Shown: piece after piece, positions 8,118 to 31,312 of the stretch | How the letters are laid out: each line of letters starts with the position of its first letter | Numbering within the stretch: the stretch's first letter is position 1 | From: Cyanidioschyzon merolae | Taxonomy: Eukaryota | Assembly: GCA_000091205.1 (NCBI GenBank) | Contig: AP006500.2 | DNA: 64,000 nt | Strand: one strand, 5' to 3' | Made by a program: the position numbers and the translations under genes | Notes under the pieces: model-generated | Seen by the model: only the letters and a program-made list of their open reading frames with translations | Databases searched by the model: none | What the model was told of the DNA's origin: nothing

Positions 8118-8353
8118 CATCACCGCCTTTCGAAAGTCGAACGGCAGCAGTGTACAGTAGTGGCGGCAACCGCGCCCTAGACGAAACGTCTCCAACCGAC
8201 GTGCAGACGCCTCCCGGTTTTTCTCGACCGAGCACCCACTACTGCTTCCAACTTCTTTTCATATAGTTCCACTTTGAAAGGTTATCCAATAAAGTTCTCT
8301 CTTGTCGACTCTGGAGGTCTCTTCTCCAGCACCGCACATTTCCTTATATTGAT
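8118..8353 (-). ncRNA. Candidate omegaRNA scaffold / right-end module of the Fanzor element. It overlaps the last ~23 codons of the nuclease ORF and ~165 bp downstream.
   Basis: A ~235-bp block conserved at roughly 85-90% by eye with 22601..22837; its core is conserved again at 28636..28674. It contains short perfect hairpins (ttcga-aag-tcgaa at 8129..8141; gacg-aaa-cgtc near 8181..8191). Its position relative to the ORF matches the TnpB/Fanzor omegaRNA architecture. Homology stops sharply at 8118 in both copies, as expected for an element end followed by the guide. Confidence 0.45.
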
Positions 8354-10540
8354 AGCGGCATTAAAGTCTCGGTTCACGAATTCCATCCGTTTCTTGCTAT
8401 CACTTGTTGTACTAACCAATGCAAGTAGCCCTCGCACTTTTGCCCTCCTCTCCATTTGCTCCTCCGTCAGCGGTCCGTACTTTGCTATTTCCTCAGGATT
8501 CCGCTGGCACTTTTCCATCCCGACCCTTCGAAGTGTACACCCCAGCTCGTGGTGTGTATAGGACGTTCGGAACTCATCCACAGGTATCGTAAAGAGACGC
8601 CTTGCGCACTCTTTGTACGCTCTCGTCGTTGGAGCTGGCGTAGTTCCTTTTAGGGTCTTCCATCGCCCTGCACCGTACGCTACTACGAGCCTCTGATTTT
8701 CATTCTCCTTGAGCGCGCTCAACTGATTGAAAAAGTTGGCGAACGCCCGCTGCCTCCCACCGTATAGATGCATACACAGACGAGCCCACCGGGGCTTGGT
8801 ATACTCCTCCCACAGCGCATCCCAATGGGCAACACGAACTCCCATGGATTTCCGGAAAGCTTCAAAGTCGGCTCCTCGGCTCGTCACCTCGCTCAACGCT
8901 TCCAGGTGATCCTTCATTCCTGAATTCCAAGTCTCGATTTCCTTCCTCGCATTCATGATTGCCGATTCTCGATAGTATCTCGCTCTCGAGAATCTCAACA
9001 GACGCATATCTTTCTGACGTAAGTTGCCGTCAGTACCATCTTCCGCACGCTTCGGTGCTGCGACGGCTATAATATTCGTATTTCCAGGGTCCGCGCCAAC
9101 GATAAAGTCGTTATCCTGCACTTTCTGCTTCTCAGAGCCCGCCTTGTTGTTTTCTTCATGCTTCGTCGCGTCTACGACAAGGTCGTTATCCTGCACTTTC
9201 TGTGTGGCAGGATCCGCATCCTTCTCATCTCCATGCTTCGTCACGTCAACGATAAAGTCGTTATCCTCCACCTCCTGCGTCGCAGGACCCGCCCCTTTGT
9301 TTTCTTCATGCTTCGCCGCGTCAACGATAAGGTCGTTGTCCTGCACCTCCTGCATCACAGGATCCGCCTCCTTGTTTTCTTCATGCTTCGTCACGAGCGC
9401 AGCCAAGGGCGGAACTGGACGATCTTTCTTCAACCGCCAATAGCGTATACACAAGGCTACTCCATCGGTTTCGATCAACCCAATGAATACCTTCTTCTTG
9501 CTCACTTTGAGACGTTTGAAATCGAAGATGCTCATCCAGTACGTCTCCCGGTTTTCGCCGGTGAAGTCCTCCCTGCTAAAATCGAACTCGGGACTGATCT
9601 CCCTCATGACGCCATGAAGGATTCTGGAGTCGATAGTCACAAAATGTGACTTGATGTTGCCCAACGGAACCACGTTGAAGCGCTTCCCCATTAGGAAAGC
9701 CTTCCGTCTCTCCCACTCTTCATTTGTCTCTTCACTCAGCATCACCTCTGCCTTGCGTTCGATGTCACGATCCAGAAACACGAAATACCGCAGGACGAGG
9801 CGATAGTATCTTTCCTTCTCTTTTTTCAACGCTAATATCTTGTCTGTTGGATTCACCAGCCCCAGTCCCGCACGATCCTCTTGTATAACCGCACGGATCG
9901 TAGAGGCTTCATTGGTGCTCACCTTTGACGTCGTCTTGTCGACAAATTCGACCTCATCTTCACGCTTGCGATCTTTCATGATGCCATTGATAATCGCCCA
10001 TTTCCCATTGCGAGAGATGCCCGAGTAGAGTGCAATCACAGCGCGTCTCATGAAACGTTCGAGGTTCACTGTCAAATGGTTCTTCAGATTCGTGATGTAC
10101 TTCATGGGCCTATATGTGTAAATATCCCGGTCACCCTTGTATCGAGTACCATTGAGGCTGTAAAAGGGATGTTTTTCGTGGAAGACATCCACCCGCTCAT
10201 TTTCCTCCCGCGCTTCCTCTGTACCAAGCGTCAGCTGACGAATAAAAATCTTGTCGAAAAACACGTGTGGAATCTCGACCGTTTCGATGGGCGTCACGTC
10301 GCGATACATCTCCCTCTCCAAATGCATCAGTCCTGACGACGCCTTGAAAATACTCTTGGAGTACGAGTCCACACGTTTTTTGATAGCGTCTCGCAACTTT
10401 TCCTTGTAGGGATCCTTGATATGTCCAAGAAGAAAGGTTTTCACAACCATCTCGTCGTACAGTTGTCTTTCTTGCCGCCTTCGACGTAGGGTATCCCCCT
10501 TTCGGTTCTTCTTCTCTTCCTTTTCTTCTGGACTAGACAC
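8282..10540 (-). CDS. Fanzor (eukaryotic TnpB-like, RuvC-fold RNA-guided endonuclease; OMEGA effector), Fanzor1-like. It has a long N-terminal extension and an internal acidic tandem-repeat insertion.
   Basis: 752-aa ORF. RuvC-I: '[18 protein letters not shown]'. RuvC-II: '[18 protein letters not shown]'. RuvC-III: '[18 protein letters not shown]', which matches the DxNAAxNI signature of TnpB/Fanzor. Spacing is I-to-II ~170 aa and II-to-III ~70 aa. The region between II and III has only 2 Cys (non-canonical zinc finger). It is embedded among eukaryotic housekeeping genes. Confidence 0.75.
9098..9396. repeat. Coding tandem repeat of 4 x ~75 bp inside the Fanzor ORF.
   Basis: Units begin 'acgataaagtcgttatcctgcac...'. 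They encode ~25-aa acidic repeats '[26 protein letters not shown] / [24 protein letters not shown] / [26 protein letters not shown] / [19 protein letters not shown]'. The last unit runs into the RuvC-I motif. Confidence 0.8.
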
Positions 10541-10760
10541 TGTTTTTTGTTTTTTCTGGCAGCCAGCGACACTGGGCCTCCAGGATCGTCGATTTGCTTT
10601 TTCATAACTTTCCTTTTTTTAGTTTTTTTGGAAAAGAACGCTCCCTCAACGCCTCTGATATAAACAGCGAAAGAAAACTTGAAAAAACTAAACTGAGGGT
10701 TGAAATATAACTGAACTGAAAAGTATACTCTGCTGTGACTTTAACGCAAATACAACGTGC
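10541..10760 (-). promoter_or_regulatory. AT-rich 5' flank, the putative promoter/5'UTR of the Fanzor ORF.
   Basis: The local AT content is much higher than the surrounding GC-rich sequence (poly-T/A runs and TATA-like 'ttatattt' on the sense strand). It lies immediately upstream of the ATG at 10540. Confidence 0.3.
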
Positions 10761-10940
10761 ACTTGAGAGCAACACGCTCAAGATCGCGATCCCGTTTCCC
10801 TTCAACAACGACATGCGCGTCGTATTTCATGCCTCCCAGATATGGAGGTGCGCGTATCGACCGCGATGCCCCCTGGCACTCGGACGTGAACTCCAAATAC
10901 CCTCAATAGAAGCATTAGCAGCAGGCTGCCGGGCACGCAT

Positions 10941-11708
10941 ATGGGCCAAAGGGCCCGCCATGCGCACCTGGTTCAGTCGGATTTTCATGCAGACCCCAAC
11001 GCACCGCAAGAACTCTTGGACGAAATCGACGCAGATTTGGCTGAAGCGCCTCTTAGGCGAAAACATTCTCCCCAATCGTTCCCCAGAAATATAGAAGGCT
11101 CCCGCCGCCTGAAGCGAACGGTCCAAACAACAGTACGGGAATGTAGACATGCAGTCAGTCGCGCGAGTAACGCCGGCTTGACTCTATACCGGAACTACAG
11201 CCTAGCCTGTTCATGCACGTACTGGTGGGAGGCGCTGGAGTTCACGGGACTTGCTCGAGGTACACAGTGGCTCGCCAAAATCCGCGTTGGTGGCTTCTGG
11301 CTACCAGCACCGGCTCTAAGCCGTATAGGAACACTGGAATCGCACTGGGAATCACACTGTCCCTGCTATCGAGACGAAATCCCCGAGACCCTGACATATG
11401 TAGGCGTACAGTGCCCGCGCTGGAAGCAGGAGCGCAGCGAGCTCCTTGAAGGACAGCAGCAGCTGGGCATCACCGTGATAGTCGAAGGCCGGACACTCAC
11501 TCTGAGTGTAGCACTGGCAACTGATGGTCCGCTAACCGAGCATCAGCGCTCATCAATGGCGAACAAACGCATATGCTACCTTCTAGGTGGAAGATCCAGC
11601 GGATCGGATGCGCACACGGGCTCAGTGCGCTCTCTGCGCCTACCTTCTGTGGTAGGTTTCAAGCACAAACCCGCATTGCCAACCGACAACAACGCATTCC
11701 ATGCATGA
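10941..11708 (+). CDS. Hypothetical ORF with a zf-RVT-like motif (CPxC...ET...CP...W), as found at the C-terminus of non-LTR retrotransposon ORF2 proteins. It is a possible decayed LINE fragment.
   Basis: Motif 'HWESHCPCYRDEIPETLTYVGVQCPRWKQERSEL'. No RT catalytic motifs were seen. It lies between the Fanzor start and repeat B on the opposite strand. Confidence 0.25.
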   Translation: MGQRARHAHLVQSDFHADPNAPQELLDEIDADLAEAPLRRKHSPQSFPRNIEGSRRLKRTVQTTVRECRHAVSRASNAGLTLYRNYSLACSCTYWWEALEFTGLARGTQWLAKIRVGGFWLPAPALSRIGTLESHWESHCPCYRDEIPETLTYVGVQCPRWKQERSELLEGQQQLGITVIVEGRTLTLSVALATDGPLTEHQRSSMANKRICYLLGGRSSGSDAHTGSVRSLRLPSVVGFKHKPALPTDNNAFHA

Positions 11709-11945
11709 TCACGAAGGAGAGAGGCGGCTCCCAGGATATATCCTAACAGCCAAGTTTCTCCAGCGTGTCGTGCAGCGAAGGCAAGCCTGCATCCGCAGAC
11801 TGTCCAAGCACAAACTGACGACGAGGCCCGATTCTACTTCAGGTGAAGTACGCCTCGAGCCGATGCCCTCTGGGGTATAGAAAAGCAGTTCTAGCTCTAT
11901 GAACTATCTGATCCAGCGGTACAGGTCCAAAGGTGGATACGGAAA

Positions 11946-12139
11946 GGCAGGTACTAGGCACACTCGATAGGACGTATGAAACGACCAGAACATCCGAGAT
12001 GAAGTATATGTACTGTAACTTGGAGGTAGGGTGTTTGATAGATACCTCACCGCGCTCTGAAAAAATATAAAGTAAGAAAAGAAAAATGCGCATAATCGGA
12101 GAACGCTGGCCCAAGTAAACGTCTTGTCAATGAAAAAAA
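11946..12139 (-). repeat. Repeat family B, copy 1. It is the reverse complement of the copy at 22838..23027 and a possible element left-end region.
   Basis: Roughly 85% identical by eye over ~190 bp to the reverse complement of 22838..23027. Homology extends through 'gtcaatgaaaaaaa' (12126..12139). The plus-strand TATA-like 'tataaag' (about 12066..12072) has no counterpart in copy 2. Confidence 0.6.
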
Positions 12140-14824: not shown

Positions 14825-16504
14825 AACATCGTCGGCGTGAGAGAAGCAAAAGGTTGAGCGGCTCAAAAGCATCGAATCTGGTGGACACTTGCGCATTCAC
14901 TTCCCACAGTATGCGTTTGCATGCCGCAGGCGCCGCTGCAACAGTCAGAACTCGCATTTTTGCAGCCGCGTAATCGCTTCCATTTGGCGAATCCAACTTG
15001 ATTGTACCGGAAACCGGCACAGACCTGATTAGACCAGTGAACCTTGAAGATATCGTTCGTCGGAAGCCAGCATTTGCATCGCGATTCGTGTGGGAATGTG
15101 TTTGCTCATTCGCTGGCTCGATCATTCCAGTTAGAACAACGGCAACGACAACAACAGAAGTAGCCCCTGGCTTCTCATGGTATTGGTGATGGCAACGCAG
15201 ACACCGGATGCCGAGCTGCTTTCGCGCACAGTGTTCGTCGAAACGTGTTCCCTCGGCAACGGGACGACAAACGTCGTATCCCCAGGATGGTTGGAGCGTG
15301 ATGTCAGACTTACACGTTTCGTGCACAACTATGGTTTCCACAAAACAGCCCCCAGAACGAAGCAGAAGCCCTCGTCGATTCCGACTGCTCGCGCCTCTCC
15401 AATCGTCTGGTCGATGTGAACCCCACGTGTCACATCAAGATCCATGATATCGCAGGAGGCTCGTCTGCACTGTACGAGACGGCCTCCTCTGTGAGCTACC
15501 GCTGATCTCTGGGAACGAGTAGAACGCGTTCGAACAACATCGCGATAACGAGTAGCGGAGCTCGTTCCAAGCTGCTCGTATATAACGAAGAAATGCAAAG
15601 CAGTTTACGCGGACGAGAGAGTCCCGCGGAGTATCGGTCTGGATGCACTGTGTGTAAACGAGGACACATATCCAAGAGTCGTGCAGCGATGCTCATTTCC
15701 AACCGTTCAACGTAGGTCATGAGAGAGGCTTCGTGAGGCGCGTGAATCTCGCTTTGCAAGGCGTCATCGCTGTCGAAGCACTTCCACATCAGGAAGATGG
15801 AGCCAAATACCTAAACGGAAACCAGATGAAGCTGTTCGACTCTCACAGGCTCTGCTTCATCGAGAGTCGAACGTGATGATCGCCAGGATCGTTACGAAAA
15901 TGGAATAAAAGCGTTAGTGCCCGTCTTATCGTTCCAAGCGTCCTGTCGAGCAGCAAGGAAACGCGCTGCGCGCAACATTCAAAGCAAACATGAGCGTCCT
16001 AATGACTCAGACCGACGATTCCTGGGAAGCGTACATGAGGCTGCGCTGCTGTCGCCAACATATTCGGTCTCACGGAGGCAAGAGGCATGCATTCGCTAAC
16101 ATGCTCAATGATGCGGTTCACGACTTGTTCGGCAACCTATAACAGGGCGAAGTTCTCGCGACCGATGGGATGGCAAGCTGTGCGTCGCGCCAGTGGGGCA
16201 TGGCGTCCAAGCAACTGGGACCCATAGAATGTGCTTCGAATCTTGCACAGTATCAATGGAAAAACAGAAGCGCTTCATGAATCAGTCAGCAAAGGAGTAC
16301 CGCATTCGGATCTCCTCGCATCAGAATCGACTCCTTTCACCCCGCACACCAGTGAAACCCTGCGGTGCAGTGCTCGGGACTTAGCCGAGCCAGAAACCCC
16401 AACTCTTTGCTGTAAGACCTCACTGGCAATGTGCATATGCTGCATCTTGCGGGTCTCTGCATGATGCCGTCCCCGATACATGGAACAGATTGGTTAGCTT
16501 CTCT

Positions 16505-18130
16505 TCAGGTGGAGCGTTCGCCATAACCCATCAAAATGTACTTGAGGTTCGTGTAAGCATCGATACCATATTTGCTGCCTTCACGCCCGTATCCACTCTG
16601 TTTGACACCACCAAAAGGCATAGCCGCATTGCTGATCACGCCTTCGTTGACACCAACCATACCGCTCTCTAACTGCTTCGCACAACGAAAGGCACGACCT
16701 AAATCCCGGGTGTAGACGTAACTCGCAAGGCCGAACTCTGTAGCATTGGCGGCGCGAATGACCTCCTCCTCATCATCAAATACGAGCAGCGGAAGCACCG
16801 GACCGAATGTCTCCTCTCGACAGAGGAGCGCATCGGGAGGCACATCCCGCACCACGGTTGGTTCATAAAACAGTGGACCCAGTTCGGAGAGCACGCGGTT
16901 ACCGACGAGGACCTTGGCGCCTTTCTGAACGGCGTCCTGGACGTGTCGCTGGACTTTGTCAATAGCTGCCTGATTGATGAGTGGACCCACTTCGACTCCG
17001 GAATCGACTCCGGGCCCGACCTTGGCTCTCGACACACGTTTCGCCAGACGCTCCGCGAATGCGTCATAGATCGCTCGCTGGACGTAGATTCGGTTCGGAC
17101 AGACACAGGTCTGGCCGCTGTTTCGCATTTTCGCTGCCCAGAGCCCGGCTACTGCTGCGTCTAGATCAGTATCATCGAAAACAATGAAAGGCGCCAGACC
17201 TCCAAGTTCCATTTCTGTGCGCTTCACGGTGCTTGCACATTGACCCATCAGCAACCGGCCAACACGCGTGCTACCGGTAAACGAAAGCATACGCACATCC
17301 GGGTGTTGTGCTAGACCTTCGCCGAAAAGGCTCGGACGGCTTCCAGATATAACATTGAAGACACCAGCCGGTATACCTGCTTCCCGAGCGAGCTCTGCCA
17401 AAGCAATGGCGGACACCGGGGTCAGTTCACTGGGCCGAGCAACCACCGTGTTCCCGGTTGCGAGCGCTGGAGCAACCTTGCGCGTTAACATCGCTGACGG
17501 GAAGTTCCACGGTGTGATTGCAGCACAAACACCCAAGGGTTCACGAACGACCAGAGCTTGTCGTGGTCCACTGGTCGCTGGGATGACGTCTCCGTAGACG
17601 CGAGGCGCCTCACTCGCAAACCACTCTACGAAAGAGGCTGCGTAGCGCACTTCGCCGATAGCCTCTGAAAGTGGTTTACCGTTCTCGCGCGTGATGACGC
17701 GTCCGAGTGCCTCGCGTTTCTCGATGATGAGATCGTACCACCTGCGAAGAAGTCCAGCACGGGTTTGCGGCGATGTTTCCCGCCACGAAGCAAACGCACT
17801 TTTTGCGGCTTGCACCGCAGCCCCTATGGTTTGTTCGTCACCGTCGGCTACGAAAGCGACGGTCTGCCCATTTGCCGGATCCGTAACTTTGTAGTAAGAG
17901 TCCGAAGAAACCTGCTGTCCATTGATATAGTGTCCAAGGTACAGGTCTTCACCTGAAGGCTGTTCAACGCCAACCGCGAGCGCACTGCTCAGCTTCCCGC
18001 TCTGCAACGCGTGACTCACCGTGCTGCTCATGAGAAACCCGTTTCCCCTGTGCTCCCACACGTTTCCCCAGCGCTGCAATCGTTTCGTTTTCTGGTGTAT
18101 GGTGCGTTGCAGCAACCCGCACCAGTGCAT
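16505..18130 (-). CDS. Succinate-semialdehyde dehydrogenase (NAD(P)+; ALDH5/GabD-like aldehyde dehydrogenase). The true start is probably the internal Met 'MSSTVSHALQ' at ~18031.
   Basis: Full-length ALDH fold: 'ITPWNFPSAMLTRKVAPALATGNTVVARPSELTP', 'EMELGGLAPFIVFDD' (catalytic Glu), 'GQTCVCPNRIYVQ' (catalytic Cys) and 'MPFGGVKQSGYGREGSKYGIDAYTNLKYI'. Confidence 0.85.
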   Translation of the reverse strand: MHWCGLLQRTIHQKTKRLQRWGNVWEHRGNGFLMSSTVSHALQSGKLSSALAVGVEQPSGEDLYLGHYINGQQVSSDSYYKVTDPANGQTVAFVADGDEQTIGAAVQAAKSAFASWRETSPQTRAGLLRRWYDLIIEKREALGRVITRENGKPLSEAIGEVRYAASFVEWFASEAPRVYGDVIPATSGPRQALVVREPLGVCAAITPWNFPSAMLTRKVAPALATGNTVVARPSELTPVSAIALAELAREAGIPAGVFNVISGSRPSLFGEGLAQHPDVRMLSFTGSTRVGRLLMGQCASTVKRTEMELGGLAPFIVFDDTDLDAAVAGLWAAKMRNSGQTCVCPNRIYVQRAIYDAFAERLAKRVSRAKVGPGVDSGVEVGPLINQAAIDKVQRHVQDAVQKGAKVLVGNRVLSELGPLFYEPTVVRDVPPDALLCREETFGPVLPLLVFDDEEEVIRAANATEFGLASYVYTRDLGRAFRCAKQLESGMVGVNEGVISNAAMPFGGVKQSGYGREGSKYGIDAYTNLKYILMGYGERST

Positions 18131-20515: not shown

Positions 20516-21697
20516 TCACGTAATGGGGCAGGTTTGTCTACGAGATTGCCGTCGCTGGGGAACCGAGGATGCTTCCTGAACATGGGAACTCTTACTTGTG
20601 TGGTTGTGAAAGCGTCGATTCGCCATACAGGGAGGTTCATCCCGGGACACGTTGTCAGGGAAGTCCTTCAGTGGCTCTGGGGGGATTTTCGCGGTCCAAA
20701 CGCTATAGATATAGCCGTAAAAGTTGCCCAAGTGATATGTTCGGCGACTAGGTGCACATGACACACAACGGAAAGGGCCAAACCCTAGCAGCTGGCTCTC
20801 CGGCTTCAGGAGTCTAATATCCCAAAAGATGGCTCGCCCACGTACTGAGGTGGTCACAGCCCGTCGACCATCGGTGGCTAGGCCCCAGATAGAGTCCCGA
20901 TGCAAGCGAAACTCATACGCGGGTTTGTTGCCCACTCGGGCATCCCAGAGCCGAAGGACATGGTCTTCGCCTCCCGATAGGAACTCATTTCCGCTCTGGT
21001 TTGCGAGCACCTTGACGCAGCGCACTTCACCCTCAACGTCCTTGGAGAAGACGCTCACCGGTTCAGTAGAACCGTGACCCAGATCCCAGAGCTCCACGGA
21101 ACCCCGCTGTGTCGCTGCGATACCAAAGTGCAAACCCGAGCTAGTATATTGCATGAACTCTACATCGTAAACTTCGTTATGCAGGAGATCGCCATCTGGA
21201 GGGACCCTTTTCACGGTGTGTGTGCAACAACACGCCGCACATGACCAAACACGAAGTGTGCCGTCGCTGGATGCACTCAGGAGGCGCTCCTCTGCACGAT
21301 CCGCTGACAGCGCATAGACCGCACCTCGATGACCACGAAGTGTTTCCATGCGGACGCACGTCGTTGGGTCAAACAGCTGAATGGTGCGATCAATGCTACA
21401 AGAGGCAGCTAAACCTGGTCGCACTTCAACAACATCGTTTACGGCAGCTTTGTGACCCGAGAAAGACTGCTTTACTTCACCGGAAGTGAGATGTAGTACC
21501 TCAACATCCGCAAGAGAGCTGGCAAGAAGCGCCAAGCTTTCGTCCGCCTCGAGAATAGCAATGCTGTACGTCGTGGTTTCCCTGTCAAGGCGCACCACCG
21601 ATGAGGGGAACTCCACGGAATTGTCCCCCAGAACTGCCGGAATCGGAGTCTCTAACCGCGAGAGCGGTACGTGCTTCCCACTGATGCAGCATTGCAT
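20516..21697 (-). CDS. WD40-repeat protein. The C-terminal ~100 aa are of doubtful coding quality.
   Basis: Multiple WD-like repeats: 'GHKAAVNDVV...CSIDRTIQLFD', 'GHRGAVYALS...SASSDGTLRVWS', 'LSGGEDHVLRLWD', 'TTSVRGRAIFWDIR'. Confidence 0.6.
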   Translation of the reverse strand: MQCCISGKHVPLSRLETPIPAVLGDNSVEFPSSVVRLDRETTTYSIAILEADESLALLASSLADVEVLHLTSGEVKQSFSGHKAAVNDVVEVRPGLAASCSIDRTIQLFDPTTCVRMETLRGHRGAVYALSADRAEERLLSASSDGTLRVWSCAACCCTHTVKRVPPDGDLLHNEVYDVEFMQYTSSGLHFGIAATQRGSVELWDLGHGSTEPVSVFSKDVEGEVRCVKVLANQSGNEFLSGGEDHVLRLWDARVGNKPAYEFRLHRDSIWGLATDGRRAVTTSVRGRAIFWDIRLLKPESQLLGFGPFRCVSCAPSRRTYHLGNFYGYIYSVWTAKIPPEPLKDFPDNVSRDEPPCMANRRFHNHTSKSSHVQEASSVPQRRQSRRQTCPIT

Positions 21698-22600: not shown

Positions 22601-23027
22601 CATCACCACCGCCGTTCGAAAGTCGAACGACAGCAGTGTGCAGTCGTGGCGACCGGCGCCCTAGACGAAACGTCTCCAACTGACGTGCAGACGCCTCCCC
22701 GTCTTTTTGGACCGGCCACCTTCTACTGCTTCCAACTTCTTCTCATATAGTTCGACTTTGAGAGGTTGTCCAACAAAGTTCTCTCTTGTCAGCTCTGGAG
22801 GTCTTCTCTCCAGCACCGCACATCTCCTGATACTGATTTTTTTCCATTGACAAAATGTTTACTTAGGCCAGCGTCCTCCGATTCTGCGCATTTTTCTTTT
22901 CTTACTTTTTTTTCAGTGCGCGGTAAGGTATCCATCAAACGCCCTACCTCCAAGTCATATTCCCTATACTTCGTCTCGGATATTCTGGACGTTTCATACG
23001 TCCTACCGTGTGTGCCTAGTGCCTGCC
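22601..23027. mobile_element. Solo composite remnant: module copy 2 (22601..22837, omegaRNA-scaffold/right-end homolog in the same orientation as locus 1) joined directly to repeat B copy 2 (22838..23027). It lacks a Fanzor ORF.
   Basis: The module homology ends at the position equivalent to 8353, inside the Fanzor ORF 3' end. The B homology begins at the very next base. B is inverted relative to its orientation at locus 1. Short overlapping ORFs here are just read-through of the repeat. Confidence 0.55.
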
Positions 23028-24275
23028 GAGAGCGATAGCAATGGCGCCTGTAGCCCCGGTGCGGTCGCTGCACGGAGACAGAACGGCGTTGCCGTACCAC
23101 ACAGAGGGCGTCTGCCCGAGGAAATTGCGGTGAGGACGAGATTCCAACTCGCGCGCTCAAAGAGCATATCCTTGGCAGGCACACCCGTTAACCATGGCGG
23201 TACTTCTGGTGCAGAGGTATCTCCGGCACCTCACCGGTAATCCCCTAGGAAATCCGATAGTTTGGCGATTCTCCTTCCTAAATTTTCGGTAATTTGTATT
23301 GTGTGCCAAGTGCACGAGCCTATCTCAAACCAAATGGATTCGGCTCTGGCTCGAATCCATGACGGTCGAGGGTTCCATCAGTTAGCAGTTCGGATGTTCT
23401 TCTTATTTGTTAGCATTCGTGATGCTAAAGTGGAAAGGCGTCGTGTTCTACGATGATGTGGAAAATGCTTTGCTTGTTCCGATGCCTATTTGCGCGGATC
23501 GTATCCAGCGGAATTTGGCAGGGATGCATAGAGTCTATATCGAGTGAACAAGTCTGCCGCTCGCCCGGTGAACGCCCGCCATCGAGTGATTGCCTTTGTG
23601 CGGAAACCATGGGCCGGCATTTTTCAGCCCATGGGATACGGGCACTCCGCAGAGTTTCAAGTCAGCTGCTGGCTACGCGCGCACGCAGTTCACCCTGGAC
23701 ACAGTCGAGACGACGACGCCCCATGCGGTGACGGACGGGGCGCTCGACAAGGTTTAAAAACGGTGCAGACCGCATGAGGTTTCATACGGACAAACTTTGG
23801 AGAATACAGCACGAAAAAGTCCCCAGAGCAGTGTCGTTCAAACAAGCCGAGCCTTTCCTGGGTGTACTCGTTCAGAAACGGTGCGTCCCAGCGCGTGCTC
23901 ACTCCCTACCCGCTTCCTCGCACGATCAGCCAGCTGTTGCTCCAGAGGCGGCACTGCGCAGATTTTTCCATCATTTTCAGAACTTTGATTGCCACTGTTT
24001 CACAAATGCGCAGAAACCAGCACTCGTAAAGCGCCACTTCGTTGCCATCGCTTCTGCACTTGAGCCCCTACTGCGCTGCAGAGTGGATGCCGGACGGCGC
24101 GGTGAGACGCGGAGCGCGCGTAAAGTACATAGTTCGATGATCAACTACGTTCTTTCATCAAGGCCAACAGTCAACTTCGCTGGTTTCCGGTCTAACTGTT
24201 TCTGAGTGCTGTTCAGAGCGATCATCCCTTGGGTAGCAGGAACTCGAGCAGTTCCCGAAATACAAGCCCTGGACG

Positions 24276-26492
24276 ATGCCAGGTGTCGGGTTTGTTCAAA
24301 TGGCCCCTGGGCGGGCGGCCGCTGCACCAACCCCGCAGCGACACAGTGTGTGCCCGCGTGCACCCTCGAAACGGGAACACGCGAAACTGTGTAGCTATGC
24401 TCTGTGGAACTCTCGTAAGTCAGAGGCAGCGAAAGGTGGGCGACCACGCTCTCGTGCGGCGCAGACGCTGGAGGCGCTCCAACTAGCCCGCCGCCAGTGG
24501 GAACATCAGACCTGGTCCGTTTCCTCACAATCGAATCGCGGACGACAGCGCCGACGAGAATCTTTGGTACTCGTTTTGTTGGCCCCTGGTGTGAACTTCC
24601 GGTTGGATGACAACACTGCCCTGATTGACGGCATCACTCGGGCTAGTCGGTACGGTTCACAGCTGGGCGTCGTGGTGCCGACGGCGGCCGTCGAGCGCTA
24701 CCCGGCGATGGTTCAGGACCTTTACGATCAAGTGCAAAAACGTGGCAGCCAGCTAGGAGTGATCGATAAAGAGCGACTCGCAAAACTTCGCGCAGGGCTA
24801 GGCGAAGGCTTTCCGATCGTCATTCAGGCATGCGTTGGCGCCGAACCCTTTCTTCAGGGACTGGCGCCCTGCCCGGTTTTTTGGAGCACGCCCACAAAAG
24901 CGGGTCAAGAGCCAGTGGATGCGCCCCGATGGATGCCTCCCGCACTTGTATCTCTTGAACCTTTAAAACTGCCGCTGACCCTAGCTAATGGAACCGAGCC
25001 GACGGAACCTGACTTTCGAGAACGCTCCGTATTGCGAGCATTGCGGGAAGCGGCACCCTCGCAGACCCTGCCTGCACTCGAGCAGTGTTTCAAATTGCCG
25101 TTAGAGCTCGCAGTACTTTCGAGGGTGCGGCTACGATTCGAGTGGGAGAAGATGCATCGCCCGCGAGAGCCTGGGCATCTGCAGGCCTGGCTCTGGGGTG
25201 GCGCGATCTGTGCGCGTCTACTCGCCAGGAGTCCCCCAGCGTGCCACGCGATCACCGTATACGATATCCATGGCAATCATATGCGCGAGTTGCGCTGGGA
25301 TAGCCAACATAACCGCTTCAGTTTCCGTGGACACAATGGAGATCATGACTACGAAGCGGCTTTTTGGAGTTTTGCGCGCCGCAAGTGGCTCTGGTTGAAG
25401 CAGTCTTTCATACCCGAGGATGTCACTGCTGACTACTACGAATTCGCCAAATGGCGAGTTTTTCAACGACTCATGTCGAGTACGGTTGGTGTCTTTGGGA
25501 CGCAGGCCCTGCTGCTGGCCCTGGGTATCAAAAGCGGCAACAAAATCAGTCAGGCTGCAACGATCAGTTGGGTCCTCAAAGACGGTCTCAGCCGAGTGGG
25601 TAAAATGCTCTGGGCGAGCCAGCTCGGGCGGGACATGGATGCAGATCCCAAACGCTTTCGATTCGGTAGTGCGTTGCTCTACTCACTGGGAAACGGTCTA
25701 GAAATTGCGACAAGAATCGTTCCGCAGTCTTTTCTCCTCGTGGCCACCTTGGCGAATACCGCAAAACTGTGTTCGATGTTAACGGCTTCTGCTACGCGGA
25801 ACGCCATGTATCGTTCGTTTGCGGACCGCAATGAGAACATCGCTGACATCACGGCCAAGGGAGAGGCACAAATAACAATCGCGGATCTCGGCGGGATGGC
25901 GCTTGGGATTCAGTTATCCAAGATCATTGGAACCTCGCGCCCCAAAGTTGTAGCAACGTACCTGATTCTGAGCACCATTGATCTGTATGCAATCTGGAAG
26001 GAACTTCGAGTGATCGAGTTCCGTACGCTGAACTTGCAACGGTCGTCACTGGTCATCGAGCATTACCTCAAAACGGGATGCGTCCCGACTCCGAAGCAGG
26101 TGAGCGCTGCGGAGCGGGTGGTGCTGCCCGAACCCATTCCCCGCCACGCTTTCGTTGCATTCTCGAAGCTAGTTCGCGACGAGCAGGAGGCCGAGCAGAT
26201 GATCAAACGCTATGGTTCAGCCAGGTTCCTGATGCGCTACGGCGAGGTCCACTGGCCGTGGACGTGCCTCCATTCGAGTCGTGGTGGCATCGTTCTTCAT
26301 CGAGATGCAGACCAACAAGATATCTTCCGGGCGATTCTTTGTTGGAATCTGCGCCGCTTAGGCATCGTCCAAGAAGAAGATGAGGTACTTGCTAGAGCGG
26401 ATGTGGTGATGGAGCCACTACTGAAAGCTGCTCGCGAAGCAGGCTGGCGAACCTTTGTGTACCCAAAGTTCAAGCATCGCGCGTTGTGGTAG
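24276..26492 (+). CDS. RUS (ROOT UV-B SENSITIVE) / DUF647 family protein. The N-terminal ~290 aa of the ORF are probably upstream read-through, with the real start internal (~25150..25250).
   Basis: DUF647-like core: 'FIPEDVTADYYEFAKWRVFQRLMSSTVGVFGTQALLLALGIK...ISWVLKDGLSRVGKMLWASQLGRDMDADPKRFRFGSALLYSLGNGLEIATRIVPQSFLLVATLANTAKLCSMLTASATRNAMYRSFADRNENIADITAKGEAQ...LSTIDLYAIWKELRVIEFRTLNLQRSSLVIEHYLKTGCVPTP'. Confidence 0.6.
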   Translation: MPGVGFVQMAPGRAAAAPTPQRHSVCPRAPSKREHAKLCSYALWNSRKSEAAKGGRPRSRAAQTLEALQLARRQWEHQTWSVSSQSNRGRQRRRESLVLVLLAPGVNFRLDDNTALIDGITRASRYGSQLGVVVPTAAVERYPAMVQDLYDQVQKRGSQLGVIDKERLAKLRAGLGEGFPIVIQACVGAEPFLQGLAPCPVFWSTPTKAGQEPVDAPRWMPPALVSLEPLKLPLTLANGTEPTEPDFRERSVLRALREAAPSQTLPALEQCFKLPLELAVLSRVRLRFEWEKMHRPREPGHLQAWLWGGAICARLLARSPPACHAITVYDIHGNHMRELRWDSQHNRFSFRGHNGDHDYEAAFWSFARRKWLWLKQSFIPEDVTADYYEFAKWRVFQRLMSSTVGVFGTQALLLALGIKSGNKISQAATISWVLKDGLSRVGKMLWASQLGRDMDADPKRFRFGSALLYSLGNGLEIATRIVPQSFLLVATLANTAKLCSMLTASATRNAMYRSFADRNENIADITAKGEAQITIADLGGMALGIQLSKIIGTSRPKVVATYLILSTIDLYAIWKELRVIEFRTLNLQRSSLVIEHYLKTGCVPTPKQVSAAERVVLPEPIPRHAFVAFSKLVRDEQEAEQMIKRYGSARFLMRYGEVHWPWTCLHSSRGGIVLHRDADQQDIFRAILCWNLRRLGIVQEEDEVLARADVVMEPLLKAAREAGWRTFVYPKFKHRALW

Positions 26493-27989
26493 TGTCAGCG
26501 CACGAGGAGCATTCACTTGGCAGCCACATGCTATGCTCTGTCTGGGATCACCGCCGATTCTTCAGAGTGTCTCATGTTCTGTAAATCTCGCTTTTCTAGG
26601 GTAAAGGTCGCCAGGGACGCCCACGAGGAGGCACAGGTTGCATCTGAGCTGACAGACGACCCGGATAGCGGCACGCTCGCTCGAGAGGGTGATACCGCTG
26701 ACAGGCGTCATGGTCGCAGAGTTGTCAGGTTTAAGCGCTGTTTCAATCTCGTGCAACTATAAAAGCGAACCGGAACGAGGGCTGGTGCATATCTGCAGCT
26801 CGGAACTGAAATATTTCATGTACAGAAATTTCGAGCTAAGCACACACACACAAAACGCACTGCATACTGCTCTGCCGAACAGTCATCTTGTTTTTCATCG
26901 AGCGGGGTCAACTAATGCACAAGCCATGGCGCCGTTCTGAGGCAGCGTCGTCGCTGCAGCGCCTGAATCGCTCTGGAGAACACCGGCAGACCAGACATCA
27001 TTGGAGAGCACTGGTGCATAGATCACACACGCATTCCTGCAAGACTCCAGCCAGATGAATGTTCCCGTGAGTACCTCGCACAATCATGTGACACTTTATG
27101 CGACTTTCGTTGCATCAGCCTGGTCCAACTAGCAGCATCGCGACCTGGCTTACAACACGCCCGCTATCATAAGTGTGGACGCTAACACCTGTGTCCAGCA
27201 GCCCAGTACAGATCAAACAAAGCCGAAACCGTATTGTCTCAAATCAGTTTTTGGCGCCAAATTGCCTGCGGAGCGCATGCGTGCCAGGCCGTTGTCAGCT
27301 CACGGTATTTCAGCTTAATTACGTTGCACCCGCGCTGCGGTGCATCGCAGAAGATCGAAAACCTTACGAAACGTATCGTATCCATCGTAGACGAATTGCC
27401 TGTAGGATTCATATTCTTTACTGAACAGTGCATGGAGGACTGCATTCCTCCTCCAGGTCATTCGTAGCTCAGTACTCAGATGCTTGAGGAACACTGAAAG
27501 AAAGAACTATATGCACTTTGCGCCGAAAGCTGGTATTTTTGAAGATTACTCGTTGTAAATTGTAGAAAACGGCCCGCTGATCTTCTTGGGAAAAGCGAAA
27601 TCGACGATATTAGCCGGCACAGATGACTCTGTATCTGACTGGCTTGTTCGTGTGGTCCAGAAATCACGGATATACAGTCGCCAAAAAAGATTCCTAGTTC
27701 AAGCACCGCCGTATTGCGCCGAAATCGAAACTACAACAAAGTTTCTTGAAAGTCACTATCGGTTTGAAGCAGAGGGACGTCGGTTTGTGCTGTCAGTCGA
27801 TGTGACTTGCTCCGGATGAAACGGTCGAAGCGTGTTTGGGTATTCGTATAGAGGGAGCCCGTTGTACGTACAATCGATCTCGTAGAGAACGATGACTTCA
27901 TATGTTACAGATGCAGTGGATTCATTTGGCGGCGTCAGTTTCGCTCGTAGAGGAGGCCCATGAAACAGCACCAACCTCTTTGTCGAATT

Positions 27990-28700
27990 ATTAAAGACTT
28001 TCCCATGATTTCCGGCGATGTCCTTCAACTGGACAGCTTCCCAATTCACCATTCCACTTGCGCTCGAGCTTCTCCCGATTTTGTTGGAGTAGAGCCACTT
28101 CTCATTCCGCCGTACACTCCGTGGGTGAACCGCATCTAAGAGAGAGTTTTCTATTGTGGAGCGCAATGGTCGCTGCACTCGGAGAATCCCTGTGCCATTC
28201 AGCAGTCAGCGACACCGAGACACTTGCCGTCTTTTTCCTGCAAGTCCTTCTTGCTCCGGGAAGGTTCTTACGTGGGGGCATAAGCATGTGCATTGATTTT
28301 CAAAATTAAAGACCCTAAGGCATGCGCCGAGTGTACAGTTCAGAACATCGTTATGGAGAGCAGGCAGCGGAGTGCTGAGGACATAGAAAAGCACGGAGAG
28401 CTGCCGGAGCACCAAACGGCACAGAGGGCGCGAGTTCTTGGACTCCTCGCACTGACCAGTTCAACCAATCGCAAGAAACACATTGAGTTCATGAACTGAG
28501 ACTTTACCGCCGCCATCAATATCAGGAGATGTGCGGCACTGAAGAAGAGACCCGCGGAGCTGATGCGAGCCAGCCTTGTCGGACAACCTCTCAGTGTCGA
28601 GGTGTATAGGAAAAAGCTGAGGCTGATAACAGACAGCCGGTCGAAAAAAAGCTGGGAGGCGTCTGCAAGTCGGTGTATGTATGTGCTCTATGATCGCGAA
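27990..28700 (+). pseudogene. Degraded Fanzor/TnpB-like paralog. It has frameshifts and an in-frame TGA before the RuvC-III motif, has lost its stop, and is followed by a partial copy of the omegaRNA-like module (core 28636..28674).
   Basis: '...TAQRARVLGLLALTSSTNRKKHIEFMN*DFTAAINIRRCAALKKRP...' aligns with the locus 1 C-terminus '[46 protein letters not shown]'. Upstream fragments 'SHFSFRRTL', 'IVERNGRCTRRIPVP', 'DTCRLFPAS' match 'AFANFFNQL', '[19 protein letters not shown]', '[11 protein letters not shown]' in shifted frames. Downstream, 'ccggtcgaaaaaaagctgggaggcgtctgcaagtcgg' matches the reverse complement of 8196..8232. Confidence 0.5.
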
Positions 28701-28741
28701 ACGTTTTATGCCCACCGAGAGGAGTAACGCAGCGTGACTGC

Positions 28742-31312
28742 ATGCGTGCAATGCGTAAAGCAACCGCTTCGCCGCAATCCTTCCATGCCCCACTTTCAAA
28801 ACAGATTCTTGTTGTTCTTATTCGAGGAAGCACTTTGGATCAAACATGCATGGGTGAAAGAGAGTCATATGCTTCGTCTGTACGACGTTGCTTTCACGGG
28901 GAGCCTGCAACTCGGCGACAAGTCTTGAAGCCTGGTTCGAATACGGGTCGCTTCTTTTGGGCCTGTGCTCGCACACTCCGCTCCGGACAGCGTTGCGCGT
29001 ACTTCGTCTGGGACAGCCACTCGGGTGTGTACGAAACAGTTCAGGCTGCGGATGGTGCACGTACGAGCCTTGGAGACCAGGTCCAAGCGGACCCGACAAG
29101 TAAGAAACTGGAGAGCACACGAGGGCGTGTGCCAGGAGCGGCGTCATCACGCACCTGCGGAAGCGGGCCGTTCTGGGAGGCCCTGCGAAACACCAAGCGC
29201 AGTGGAACGTCCCAAGATCAGTTGCCGCAGTTTTCATTGAGCAGTGATCCGCAAGCAGGCAGCGCAGCAATACGCGCTGGCAGTGGGCTGGAGAAGAGGC
29301 CGAGCAAGGAACGCGCCGGCACGCAGTGGCTAGTCGAGATCGGGGACGGAGAACATTTTCACCTCTGGCCTCAGAAGAATAGCGAGGCAAACGCATATAT
29401 GCTTTTTCAGCTTGCGCAGCGAGTTCCGGGTGCAGTGCTGGAACCCTCGAAGGAACGCCTTCGGATACCATTGTCTTCCTGGACTGCAACCTCTGCAGCT
29501 GTCGCAGCGCTTGAGGGAAGCATCCGTGGCCATCCACCGCAGCGGTTGATGCAAAACCTGGTGAATCTTCGCCGTCGGTTGGAGGACCGAAATGGGGAAA
29601 AACAATGCTTCGCGGAGGTCTTGGCCCATGCTCGCGCGTCCTTGGCGTCGATTCAGCTCTGGGAGCAGTTGCTACCTTTTCAACGGACTGGCGTTGAGCG
29701 CGCGATTGTCCAAGGCGGGCGCGTCCTTCTAGCCGATGAAATGGGCCTCGGAAAAACCATCCAAGCAATTGCCATCGCGTGGGTTTTGCGAAAGGACTGG
29801 CCGGTGCTCATTGTTTGTCCAAGTTCACTGCGAGGCGCCTGGTGTCGCGAGTGGAGAGACCGGTTAGCGGGCGCCTCGCTGACACCCTCCGATATTCATG
29901 TTCTGGAGACGGCCACCGACGCGGGAAAACCTCTTCGTGCGGTCAACATCGTGTCGTACGATTTGGTGGGCCGACTTGCCGACGCGCAGCTCCAGCGCGT
30001 CGGTGTCCTGATCCTCGACGAGAGCCATTATATCAAATCAGTGGATGCCAAACGGACACAATTCCTCTTGCCTTGGCTGAAACGGATACCGCGTGTGCTG
30101 CTGCTCACCGGCACCCCGGCGCTATCGCGACCGGCAGAGCTGTTCACGCAGCTACATGGTCTGGCGCCGTCCATATTTAGTGACTGGAAAGAGTTCGCGT
30201 ATCGGTATTGCGGTGCCCGAAGTACTCCGTGGAAAGCCTTGGACACGTCTGGCGCTACCAACCTGTCCGAACTTCATCGCATCTTGACGCAAACCGTTAT
30301 GATTCGCCGTCTCAAGGCGGAGATCCTGGATCAGCTGCCTCGGAAGGAACGCGGGGTCGCGTACGTGGAGCCTGCAGCGTCCACTCCAGAGCAGTTGCAT
30401 GCCGTGCTAGACGAACTCGCGGCGACTGAGCAGAAAGCTAGCACCGGCGATCAACAAGCAGCGAGCAAGGTGAAGGCGCTCATGAGCAAGGCATTCCACC
30501 TGACCGCTGTAGCCAAAGTGCCAGCCGTGCTGGCCCAGTGTGCAGACATTTGGCGAACTGGACACAAATTTTTGCTTTTTGCCTATCACGAACTCATGCT
30601 CGACGCTGTGGAAGGATGGCTACGCGAACAACAAGGTACCTGGATACGGATCGATGGCAAGACACAAGTTACAGAGCGCCAGGCGCTAGTGGATCGGTTC
30701 CAAGATGATCCTCAATGCCGTGTAGCGCTCTTGGCGTTGACAGCAGCCGGAGCTGGTCTCACGCTCACTGCAGCCCACGTGGTACTCTTTGCCGAGCTCT
30801 ACTGGAATCCAGGCACGCTGCGGCAAGCAGAGGATCGCGTTCACCGTATCGGCCAAAAGGAGTCGGTCTCTATCCGTTACCTGATCCTGCCTCGAAGCCT
30901 TGATGATCGCATGTGGCGATCCGTCCAGAACAAGCTCGATATCTTGCATTCATCCCTGGACGGTAAAATCGATCGCGAACGAGTCAATGTGGTGGCTGGA
31001 TCAGCCTGGAATGCCCCAGAGCCAGGCCCATTGGATCGTTTCTTCAAGCGTCGTAGCCAAGGAGTGGTGTCGTCCCCGGAACCAGGTGCAGATGAGCCCA
31101 CAAGCGTACGGAGCTCTTCCGTACCAGATGCATTCGAACAAGATCACGTCCCAGTGATCGAGTCGTTCGAACCAGAGGAACCACCGGAAATTCCGTCGTC
31201 TTTCTTGAATAGTGAGCTGGGCTCGGGATCAAACCGAACGCAATTTCAGCGAGAGGCACGGAAAAGGACCTTTCAGGAAATTGAGCCGAATAACGCTCTA
31301 CCTAGTTCTTAA
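28742..31312 (+). CDS. SMARCAL1-like SNF2-family annealing helicase with a HARP-like domain and an N-terminal GRF-type zinc finger.
   Basis: GRF-like zinc finger: 'CFHGEPATRRQVLKPGSNTGRFFWACARTLRSGQRCAYFVWD'. HARP-like: 'QWLVEIGDGEHFHLWPQKNSEANAYMLFQLAQRVPGAVLEPSKERLRIPLSSW'. SNF2 motifs: 'LLADEMGLGKTIQAIAIA', 'LILDESHYIKS', 'LLLTGTPALSRP'. Helicase-C: 'LLALTAAGAGLTLTAAHVVLFAELYWNPGTLRQAEDRVHRIGQ'. Confidence 0.8.
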   Translation: MRAMRKATASPQSFHAPLSKQILVVLIRGSTLDQTCMGERESYASSVRRCFHGEPATRRQVLKPGSNTGRFFWACARTLRSGQRCAYFVWDSHSGVYETVQAADGARTSLGDQVQADPTSKKLESTRGRVPGAASSRTCGSGPFWEALRNTKRSGTSQDQLPQFSLSSDPQAGSAAIRAGSGLEKRPSKERAGTQWLVEIGDGEHFHLWPQKNSEANAYMLFQLAQRVPGAVLEPSKERLRIPLSSWTATSAAVAALEGSIRGHPPQRLMQNLVNLRRRLEDRNGEKQCFAEVLAHARASLASIQLWEQLLPFQRTGVERAIVQGGRVLLADEMGLGKTIQAIAIAWVLRKDWPVLIVCPSSLRGAWCREWRDRLAGASLTPSDIHVLETATDAGKPLRAVNIVSYDLVGRLADAQLQRVGVLILDESHYIKSVDAKRTQFLLPWLKRIPRVLLLTGTPALSRPAELFTQLHGLAPSIFSDWKEFAYRYCGARSTPWKALDTSGATNLSELHRILTQTVMIRRLKAEILDQLPRKERGVAYVEPAASTPEQLHAVLDELAATEQKASTGDQQAASKVKALMSKAFHLTAVAKVPAVLAQCADIWRTGHKFLLFAYHELMLDAVEGWLREQQGTWIRIDGKTQVTERQALVDRFQDDPQCRVALLALTAAGAGLTLTAAHVVLFAELYWNPGTLRQAEDRVHRIGQKESVSIRYLILPRSLDDRMWRSVQNKLDILHSSLDGKIDRERVNVVAGSAWNAPEPGPLDRFFKRRSQGVVSSPEPGADEPTSVRSSSVPDAFEQDHVPVIESFEPEEPPEIPSSFLNSELGSGSNRTQFQREARKRTFQEIEPNNALPSS

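Follow-up and report, generated by a model that had tools for sequence, protein, structure and literature searches.

A decayed CMe-1A (Fanzor1) fragment in the 5' spacer of a SMARCAL1/ZRANB3-like helicase gene of Cyanidioschyzon merolae

The window analysed here, the whole stretch of 64,000 nucleotides, is nuclear DNA of Cyanidioschyzon merolae 10D; three proteins encoded in it match C. merolae 10D entries with full identity. Positions 28321–28674 carry a degraded internal piece of the transposable element CMe-1A, which is very probably a dead fragment of one CMe-1A copy that has been tolerated in the 5' spacer of a helicase gene. CMe-1A is a family of ~150 copies that are ~80% identical to a 3169-bp consensus with a 734-aa Fanzor1 ORF; CMe-1 is listed as Fanzor1, and CMe-1A is unclassified, without inverted repeats and without target duplications (Bao & Jurka 2013, Mobile DNA 4:12, PMC3627910). 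The features of the window that are needed below are as follows.

8142–10865, minus strand: near full-length CMe-1A copy (consensus 648–3145; blastn 85–89% identity)
22628–22837, minus strand: short CMe-1A 3' fragment (consensus 2934–3145, 90.6% identity)
27981–28151, plus strand: probable short relic of an IS630/Tc1-mariner-type DDE transposase (…LQLDSFPIHHS…LLIPPYTPWVNRI, stop, E…)
28321–28674, plus strand: internal CMe-1A (Fanzor1) fragment (consensus nt 2736–3092 of 3169 bp)
28497–28499, plus strand: in-frame TGA; CGA in the CMe-1A consensus, the Arg of the RuvC-III 'RD' ('NRD') motif
28500–28526, plus strand: remains of the RuvC-III motif, DFTAAINIR, aligning with DFNAAINIR of the consensus and of the intact copy
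28675–28849, plus strand: proximal 5' flank of the helicase gene, without transposon similarity, holding an in-frame ATG at 28742
28850–31312, plus strand: SMARCAL1/ZRANB3-like SNF2 helicase, 820 aa, BAM82343.1; the open frame reaches up to 28742

Identity and extent of the fragment

The published CMe-1A consensus matches the fragment by blastn with E=6e-64 and 75.9% identity over 348 bp, and in a local alignment of 359 columns the identity is 75.5%, with 5 gap events. The CMe-1 protein finds it by tblastn (E=9e-33), and the family HMM matches its two stop-free pieces (E=1.5e-13 and 4e-9). It spans Fanzor codons ~611–729 of 734, that is, the last ~119 codons. Both ends of the element are missing, so the fragment has the nucleotide similarity of a CMe-1A family member but is not a complete element, which would run from consensus 1 to ~3145–3169. 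In Pfam no usable TnpB/Fanzor match was obtained for the relic peptide or for the 752-aa ORF of the intact copy, and the DUF8286 model, precomputed for the family, gave no match in a local Pfam search.

The preliminary description placed a degraded Fanzor paralog at 27990–28742. Its Fanzor origin, including the profile-search support that it called for, holds for 28321–28674 and fails for 27990–28283. The 'frame-shifted Fanzor fragments' of that upstream part were rejected, as blastn, tblastn (word size 2) and a six-frame family HMM search were empty, with nothing reported even at E<=10. Across the spacer between RUS and the helicase gene, blastn, tblastn, local alignment and the family HMM gave no CMe-1A or Fanzor match beyond 28284–28724. 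Judged by these comparisons, 27990–28320 is not Fanzor-derived. The 'module-like segment' said to follow the Fanzor part is no separate module; it is the part of the consensus ORF that codes for the C-terminal tail (consensus ~2990–3092), and the window's intact copy has lost this part through a premature stop.

Other Fanzor-family pieces in the window

The near full-length copy at 8142–10865 holds a 752-aa Fanzor1 ORF at 8282–10540 and served as the window's reference copy. Both this copy and the 3' fragment at 22628–22837 extend to consensus 3145. The 3' fragment adjoins an inverted TE-N2_CMe-like piece. Three Fanzor insertions had been counted initially, and blastn and the family profile now give five Fanzor-family pieces. 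The C. merolae genome is ~16.5 Mb, and ~150 CMe-1A copies in ~16.5 Mb predict ~0.6 per 64 kb. Three CMe-1A pieces in 64 kb have a nominal Poisson P of ~0.02, but the genome holds ~260 windows of this size and several would reach that value by chance, which leaves little of the supposed 'unusually high local density'.

Decay of the coding sequence

The frame from 27990 does read GLLALTSSTNRKKHIEFMN, a stop and then DFTAAINIRRCAALKKRP, and translation together with alignment to the consensus confirmed that the in-frame TGA sits directly before the RuvC-III Asp. In the 'RD' motif this TGA takes the place of the R codon; the D survives, as does the FTAAINI after it. The loss of the native stop was likewise confirmed. 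The consensus stop (3108–3110) has no counterpart because the similarity ends at consensus 3092, which corresponds to window position 28674. The fragment is not an uninterrupted ORF, with the TGA, 5 gap events and ~119 of 734 codons. The RuvC-I Asp (GxDPG) and the Glu of DE[FY]RTS are encoded upstream of consensus 2736, and the fragment contains nothing equivalent. Because these two residues and most of the protein are absent, the relic is unable to encode a nuclease, and without the other catalytic motifs and the 3' hairpin it would therefore be inert.

Mismatches to the consensus fall on the three codon positions of the relic as 25/22/34 (chi-square p=0.24), and the alignment has 5 gap events. 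The intact copy, over its C-terminal half, shows 22/15/59 (p=2.6e-8) and zero gaps. The relic is presumably neutral and functionless.

The helicase gene and its start

The 820-aa product matches BAM82343.1 exactly, with the NCBI-annotated start at 28850. Pfam finds SNF2-rel_dom, Helicase_C and an N-terminal GRF zinc finger (Zn_ribbon_GRF). The protein has the SNF2 ATPase plus Helicase_C core and its closest homologues lie in the SMARCAL1/ZRANB3 subfamily; outside red algae, the best homologues carry the names SMARCAL1, ZRANB3 or CHR18. The HARP domain (PF07443), typical of SMARCAL1 proper, was not found in it at E<=0.01.

The N-termini of three orthologues align to M37 (28850), which has a conserved GCATG context. 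The start codon is most likely the one at 28850 rather than that at 28742, which had been taken for the helicase ATG and is merely the first in-frame ATG. With the probable start at 28850, the relic ends 176 bp from the start and 68 bp from 28742. These distances replace the ~50 bp first given for ATG 28742.

The helicase spacer in relatives and in the population

As the preliminary description had proposed, the orthologous upstream region was compared in related genomes. The RUS-to-helicase gene order is conserved in three more distant relatives, and CMe-1A similarity is absent from all three. The spacer measures 2249 bp in C. merolae, against ~1300 and 1255 bp in two of the relatives and just 108 bp in Cyanidium caldarium. 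Non-coding conservation with the relatives was not significant in any spacer sub-region when compared with shuffles.

Ten environmental C. merolae contigs are ~99% identical across the whole spacer. An 'empty site' allele was sought, and every environmental contig of the C. merolae type has the relic, which is fixed. Among 11 population sequences, the relic and proximal flank have 4 variable sites in 529 bp (~8 per kb, like coding sequence), and one of these sites is in the 175 bp of 28675–28849. The remaining spacer has 39 in 1828 bp (~21 per kb); these numbers are small, and the sites are linked in a few haplotypes. The fewer variable sites in the relic and proximal flank could reflect some constraint on the region.

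The claim that the relic is 'sitting in the promoter' is correct as to position, since the relic is situated in the 5' flank with 176 bp between its end and the probable ATG, and goes no further than that. It is unlikely that the relic has been co-opted into a putative promoter or 5' UTR of the helicase gene, as the preliminary description suggested; such a role is supported only by weakly reduced polymorphism. The proximity to both ATGs and the fixation of the relic in all population contigs are consistent with co-option, and the polymorphism of 28321–28849 is ~1/3 of that in the upstream spacer (rough Poisson P ~0.01, sites not independent). However, the relic alone has 3 variable sites versus 7.5 expected (P ~0.06), and the 175 bp without transposon similarity between relic and ATG could hold the core promoter. 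The orthologous gene is driven without any relic in the relatives, in C. caldarium from a spacer of only 108 bp. Searching the literature for mapped transcription starts of C. merolae gave nothing usable.

A transposase-like relic upstream of the fragment

The stretch 27981–28151, which the first reading of the DNA mistook for frame-shifted Fanzor pieces, is a probable IS630/Tc1-mariner-like transposase relic, as judged from profile matches. Pfam DDE_3 matches it with E=4e-4 and 20.7 bits (cut-off 28.6) at profile positions 69–127 of 146, and the NCBIfam IS630 transposase model with E=5.8e-4 and 19.4 bits (threshold 100) at positions 224–269 of 299. Each is the single match in its library, but both are under the curated thresholds and are therefore suggestive only. 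Searches of the window, of the fetched loci and, in one scan, of metagenomes gave no further copy apart from syntenic ones. Two TARA matches were rejected as chance, lying inside an unrelated ORF of >1300 aa. Tblastn with the PUl-1 Mariner transposase from the supplement of Bao & Jurka gave non-significant matches only. Inverted or direct repeats marking element ends were found at chance level only, and terminal inverted repeats (TIRs) with TA duplications were not found around 27981–28151. The sole flanking inverted repeat (27729–27753 / 28792–28816) has 25 nt, is 76% complementary and lacks TA flanks.

This relic and the Fanzor fragment might come from opposite ends of a single Mariner-Fanzor element of the PUl-1 and PGv-1 kind that suffered an internal deletion, although we consider this quite improbable. 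Both pieces are on the plus strand, 170 bp apart and in one reading frame, and their order, transposase before Fanzor, matches the published Mariner-Fanzor elements. The classification of CMe-1A is also stated as unknown by Bao & Jurka (2013). Against a common origin, neither transposase match reaches its library's threshold, a transposase is missing from the CMe-1A consensus, a second copy of the transposase-like relic did not turn up in the sequences searched, and the only flanking repeat is at chance level without TA duplications. The transposase-like relic is also far more polymorphic than the Fanzor piece, with 58 versus 8.5 variable sites per kb in the population sequences. If true, a composite element would be the first clue to the transposase and mobilisation of CMe-1A in C. 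merolae.

The 3' part of the fragment

The guide RNA of Fanzor/TnpB systems overlaps the 3' end of the ORF, and the relic keeps consensus 2916–3092, including its best-conserved 60 nt (85%). It is nevertheless hardly credible that this 3' part yields a functional omega-RNA scaffold that intact CMe-1 proteins use in trans, as it lacks consensus 3093–3145, which includes the terminal hairpin and the boundary of the element, where a guide would begin, the final 60 nt of the relic hold three indels, and its folding z-score is −0.05, no better than shuffles, versus −2.99 for the 3' 254 nt of the CMe-1A consensus. The similarity to the consensus breaks off within a consensus hairpin, and Rfam gave zero matches on 26400–28900.

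Discussion

The simplest account of the locus remains a dead, tolerated CMe-1A fragment. After the C. merolae lineage had split from the closest sampled relatives, a CMe-1A sequence would have landed, or been carried, into its spacer between RUS and the SMARCAL1-like helicase gene. The copy would then have lost everything upstream of Fanzor codon ~611 together with the last ~53–77 bp of the element; this order, insertion followed by truncation, is the one we infer. Neutral drift since then would account for the stop within the RuvC-III 'RD' motif, for five indels and for ~24% substitutions. Such a fragment would be unable to supply the complete 3' non-coding RNA end and would do nothing as a Fanzor. 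Its site 176 bp upstream of the helicase start would be most simply explained by a tolerated insertion into an intergenic region that was expanding.

The C. merolae genome is very compact and transposon-poor, and precise deletion by homologous recombination is possible in this organism. In the C. merolae lineage the RUS-helicase spacer has grown from ~0.1 kb to 2.2 kb, at least partly through transposon debris. The relic itself matters little, being one among the many broken members of CMe-1A; the corrected coordinates and helicase start codon are of modest use.

Comparison with known systems

Like transposon-derived promoters, the relic is a transposon fragment <200 bp from a start codon and fixed in the population. 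It differs from them in that orthologues of the helicase gene function without the fragment, and a promoter role here is putative.

The published composites PUl-1 and PGv-1 are Mariner-Fanzor elements (PMC3627910). The locus resembles them in having a transposase-like relic upstream of a Fanzor fragment in matching orientation, and differs from them in its lack of TIRs and TA duplications, the sub-threshold transposase match and the transposase-free CMe-1A consensus.

The parent family is related to an experimentally characterised Fanzor1. A profile of 12 family members had a sole match among 177,635 PDB sequences, the Guillardia theta Fanzor1 (GtFz1, 9CER; E=0.0052), and phmmer with the single intact ORF gave zero PDB matches. 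The family shares with GtFz1 the GxDPG RuvC-I motif, DEFRTS and the RD-x-NAA-x-NI RuvC-III motif, and the relic keeps the context of the RuvC-III Asp. Unlike GtFz1, the relic is no gene; a nonsense codon replaces the conserved Arg, frameshifts are present, and the RuvC-I, WED and REC parts are lacking.

The closest comparison is with CMe-1A itself, found in the same host genome. The homology over consensus 2736–3092 is ~76%, near the ~80% of the family, and the relic is slightly more diverged than the two other CMe-1A pieces in the window (85–91%). It retains 11% of the element and lacks both ends, the TE-N2_CMe-like 5' part and 84% of the ORF. The relic is of a known kind, whose family, copy number, age and Fanzor1 identity were published in 2013.

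The spacer relic is an internal fragment of CMe-1A

CMe-1A of C. merolae exists in about 150 copies with about 80% identity to a 3169-bp consensus, which encodes a 734-aa Fanzor1 ORF (Bao & Jurka 2013, PMC3627910). It has neither inverted repeats nor recognisable target duplications, its classification is unknown, and its 5′ 635 bp are common to TE-N2_CMe (about 70 copies) (PMC3627910). The consensus (Additional file 2 of Bao & Jurka 2013, PMC3627910) was aligned to the window.

CMe-1A and TE-N2_CMe-like pieces in the window
8142-10865, minus: nearly full-length CMe-1A (consensus 648-3145, 85-89% identity)
11839-12030, minus: CMe-1A piece, TE-N2_CMe-like (consensus 84-270, 78% identity)
22628-22837, minus: CMe-1A 3′ piece (consensus 2934-3145, 90.6% identity)
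22943-23123, plus: TE-N2_CMe-like 5′ piece (consensus 84-258, 77% identity)
28331-28674, plus: CMe-1A fragment, the relic (consensus 2747-3092, 75.9% identity)

Within the window, 28331-28674 also matches the 3′ end of the 752-aa ORF at 8282-10540 (minus; 70% nucleotide identity) and the short piece 22679-22837 (minus). Local alignment pairs 28321-28674 with consensus 2736-3092 (75.5% identity, 359 columns). The frame from 27990 gives exactly the peptide reported in the preliminary description, with the in-frame TGA at 28497-28499; this codon lies opposite a consensus CGA, the Arg of the family-defining C-terminal RD motif. The relic starts just downstream of a 10-residue motif also found in the 752-aa ORF; the RuvC-I aspartate and the DEFRTS glutamate are therefore absent, as is 84% of the protein. 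It ends 16 nt short of the consensus stop and 53 nt short of consensus 3145, the end point of the other two CMe-1A copies. The 3′ break sits within a consensus hairpin. The relic is therefore an internal piece of the element, truncated on either side.

Against the consensus, the relic has 5 gap events in 354 bp, and by codon position its 81 mismatches are distributed 25/22/34 (p=0.24). The intact copy is gap-free in its C-terminal half, where mismatches are 22/15/59 (p=2.6e-8). In RNA folding, the 3′-terminal 254 nt of the consensus beat 199 of 200 shuffles (z=-2.99), the intact copy was modestly better (z=-1.21), and the equivalent stretch of the relic was no better (z=-0.05). Rfam gave no match on 26400-28900. 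Judged from its sequence, the relic is incapable of acting as a Fanzor.

A probable transposase relic lies upstream

The preliminary description had read frame-shifted Fanzor fragments from 27990 onwards. The consensus alignment bears this out for 28321-28674 but not for 27990-28283, where blastn with the CMe-1A consensus, tblastn with the CMe-1 protein (E<=10) and the family HMM (38 sequences, filters off, run on every one of the window's 1870 stop-free pieces in six frames) were all blank. For the peptide …ISGDVLQLDSFPIHHSTCARASPDFVGVEPLLIPPYTPWVNRI*ERVF… the sole Pfam match was DDE_3 (E=4e-4, 20.7 bits) and the sole NCBIfam match was IS630 family transposase (E=5.8e-4), both under the curated cut-off and both spanning the C-terminal catalytic region. 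The 27990-28320 stretch thus holds what is probably, though unproven, a relic of an IS630/Tc1-mariner-type transposase. No further copies were found in the window, the fetched loci or a metagenome scan, and the one inverted repeat bracketing the region was at chance level, without TA flanks.

The reference copy and Fanzor density

The 752-aa Fanzor1 ORF is open inside the 8142-10865 copy and carries two family motifs (15 and 10 residues). The protein collection yielded 37 relatives of it, of which most share 65-83% identity and come solely from JGI metagenomes. A profile from 12 family members had Guillardia theta Fanzor1 (9CER) as its sole PDB match (E=0.0052, over the RuvC-I region). A ~76-bp unit stands three times in tandem (consensus 2117-2195; protein form TKHEENKxAxPxxQxVxDNDxxVD) right before the RuvC-I GADPG motif, and the final 34 residues of the consensus are lost through a CAA-to-TAA change. 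Third-position mismatch bias against the consensus is seen in the C-terminal half of the ORF but is absent from the N-terminal one. A JGI metagenome contig (L001) carries a 99% identical copy at the syntenic position. A 255-aa ORF without Pfam match (10941-11708, plus) lies between the body of this copy and the 11839-12030 piece; gene calling on the syntenic metagenome contig also reports it, and it may be an insertion into the element or a host gene. The CMe-1A 3′ end at 22628-22837 (minus) is directly joined to the TE-N2_CMe-like 5′ piece (~22838-23123, plus), an inverted junction that suggests nested insertion or rearrangement and is kept in all environmental contigs covering it.

The family HMM also detected, as co-linear series of weak matches, two Fanzor pseudogenes that are much older and severely decayed.

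Old Fanzor pseudogenes
~15302-16139, plus: four matches, profile 269-534 (best piece 15918-16139, E=9e-9)
~61134-62596, minus: six weak matches, profile 112-679 (best E=1e-3, 3e-3)

The first does not resemble the CMe-1A consensus at the nucleotide level, and is therefore much older or of another subfamily. The earlier count of three Fanzor insertions is accordingly too low, and its description as an unusually high density is weak. The C. merolae genome is about 16.5 Mb, so that about 150 copies give 0.6 expected per 64 kb; three CMe-1A pieces have a nominal P of ~0.02, and such density would be reached by chance in several genome windows, even without the usual transposon clustering.

Host genes and the helicase start

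Window genes with products identical to C. merolae 10D proteins
16505-18130, minus: succinate-semialdehyde dehydrogenase (BAM82340)
20516-21697, minus: WD40 protein (BAM82341)
24276-26492, plus: RUS/UVB-sensitive protein (BAM82342)

The gene 3′ of the relic encodes an SNF2 helicase that carries a GRF zinc finger at its N-terminus and no detected HARP domain; its best homologues outside red algae are named SMARCAL1, ZRANB3 or CHR18. Its start had been placed at 28742, which is just the first ATG of a frame that stays open over the 36 codons preceding the annotated start (28742-28849). The 820-aa product from 28850 is BAM82343.1 (C. merolae 10D), and the 856-aa product from 28742 has no exact 10D record. 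Three orthologues (61%, 57% and, in Cyanidium caldarium, 47% identical) start at a Met aligned with M37, where conservation sets in, and all four helicases share a GCATG start context. The start codon is probably 28850, which puts the relic end 176 bp before it. Prokaryote-style gene callers give the 856-aa helicase on metagenome contigs because the frame is open upstream; 28742 would serve as an upstream initiation codon in the same frame should transcription begin further 5′.

Fixation of the relic in the sampled population and restriction to the C. merolae lineage

Ten environmental contigs cover the spacer in full; their RUS protein is identical to that of the window or nearly so (same 90%-identity cluster). 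Across the spacer they share 98.8-99.4% identity with the window. The sampled C. merolae population is therefore fixed for the relic, and no empty allele was found. RUS-to-helicase gene order is kept in three more distant relatives, with spacers of ~1304, 1255 and 108 bp (Cyanidium caldarium) versus 2249 bp in C. merolae. Comparison of these orthologous 5′ flanks, as the preliminary description proposed, revealed nothing similar to CMe-1A or the C. merolae spacer at either the DNA or the protein level; the insertion therefore belongs to the C. merolae lineage alone, and the helicase orthologues are evidently expressed without it. The two closer relatives' spacers each have an unannotated minus-strand ORF (164-180 aa) without Pfam match. 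The spacer, taken as 26493-28849 in the window, plainly illustrates lineage-specific intergenic growth in otherwise compact genomes.

Variable sites per kb among 11 population sequences
RUS coding sequence: 3.6
Helicase coding sequence: 8.2
Distal spacer: 16.5
Transposase-like relic: 58
Gap between the two relics: 22
CMe-1A fragment: 8.5 (3 sites in 354 bp)
Proximal 175 bp: 5.7 (1 site)

The final 529 bp before the helicase ATG are less variable than the remaining spacer (rough Poisson P ~0.01; P ~0.06 for the relic alone), but the sites are few and are linked within a small number of haplotypes. This low variability is the only observation favouring a regulatory role, and a weak one; the relic possibly contributes to the helicase promoter in a trivial positional sense only. 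The transposase-like relic (27951-28139) is the most polymorphic stretch of the region: its 189 bp have 11 variable sites, and several double substitutions fall at adjacent positions.

On this sequence evidence, the relic is a genuine but ordinary fossil, beside a possible second-transposon relic in a host intergenic region expanded in the C. merolae lineage. It is an internal, neutrally decaying fragment of a Fanzor1 repeat family already published in 2013.
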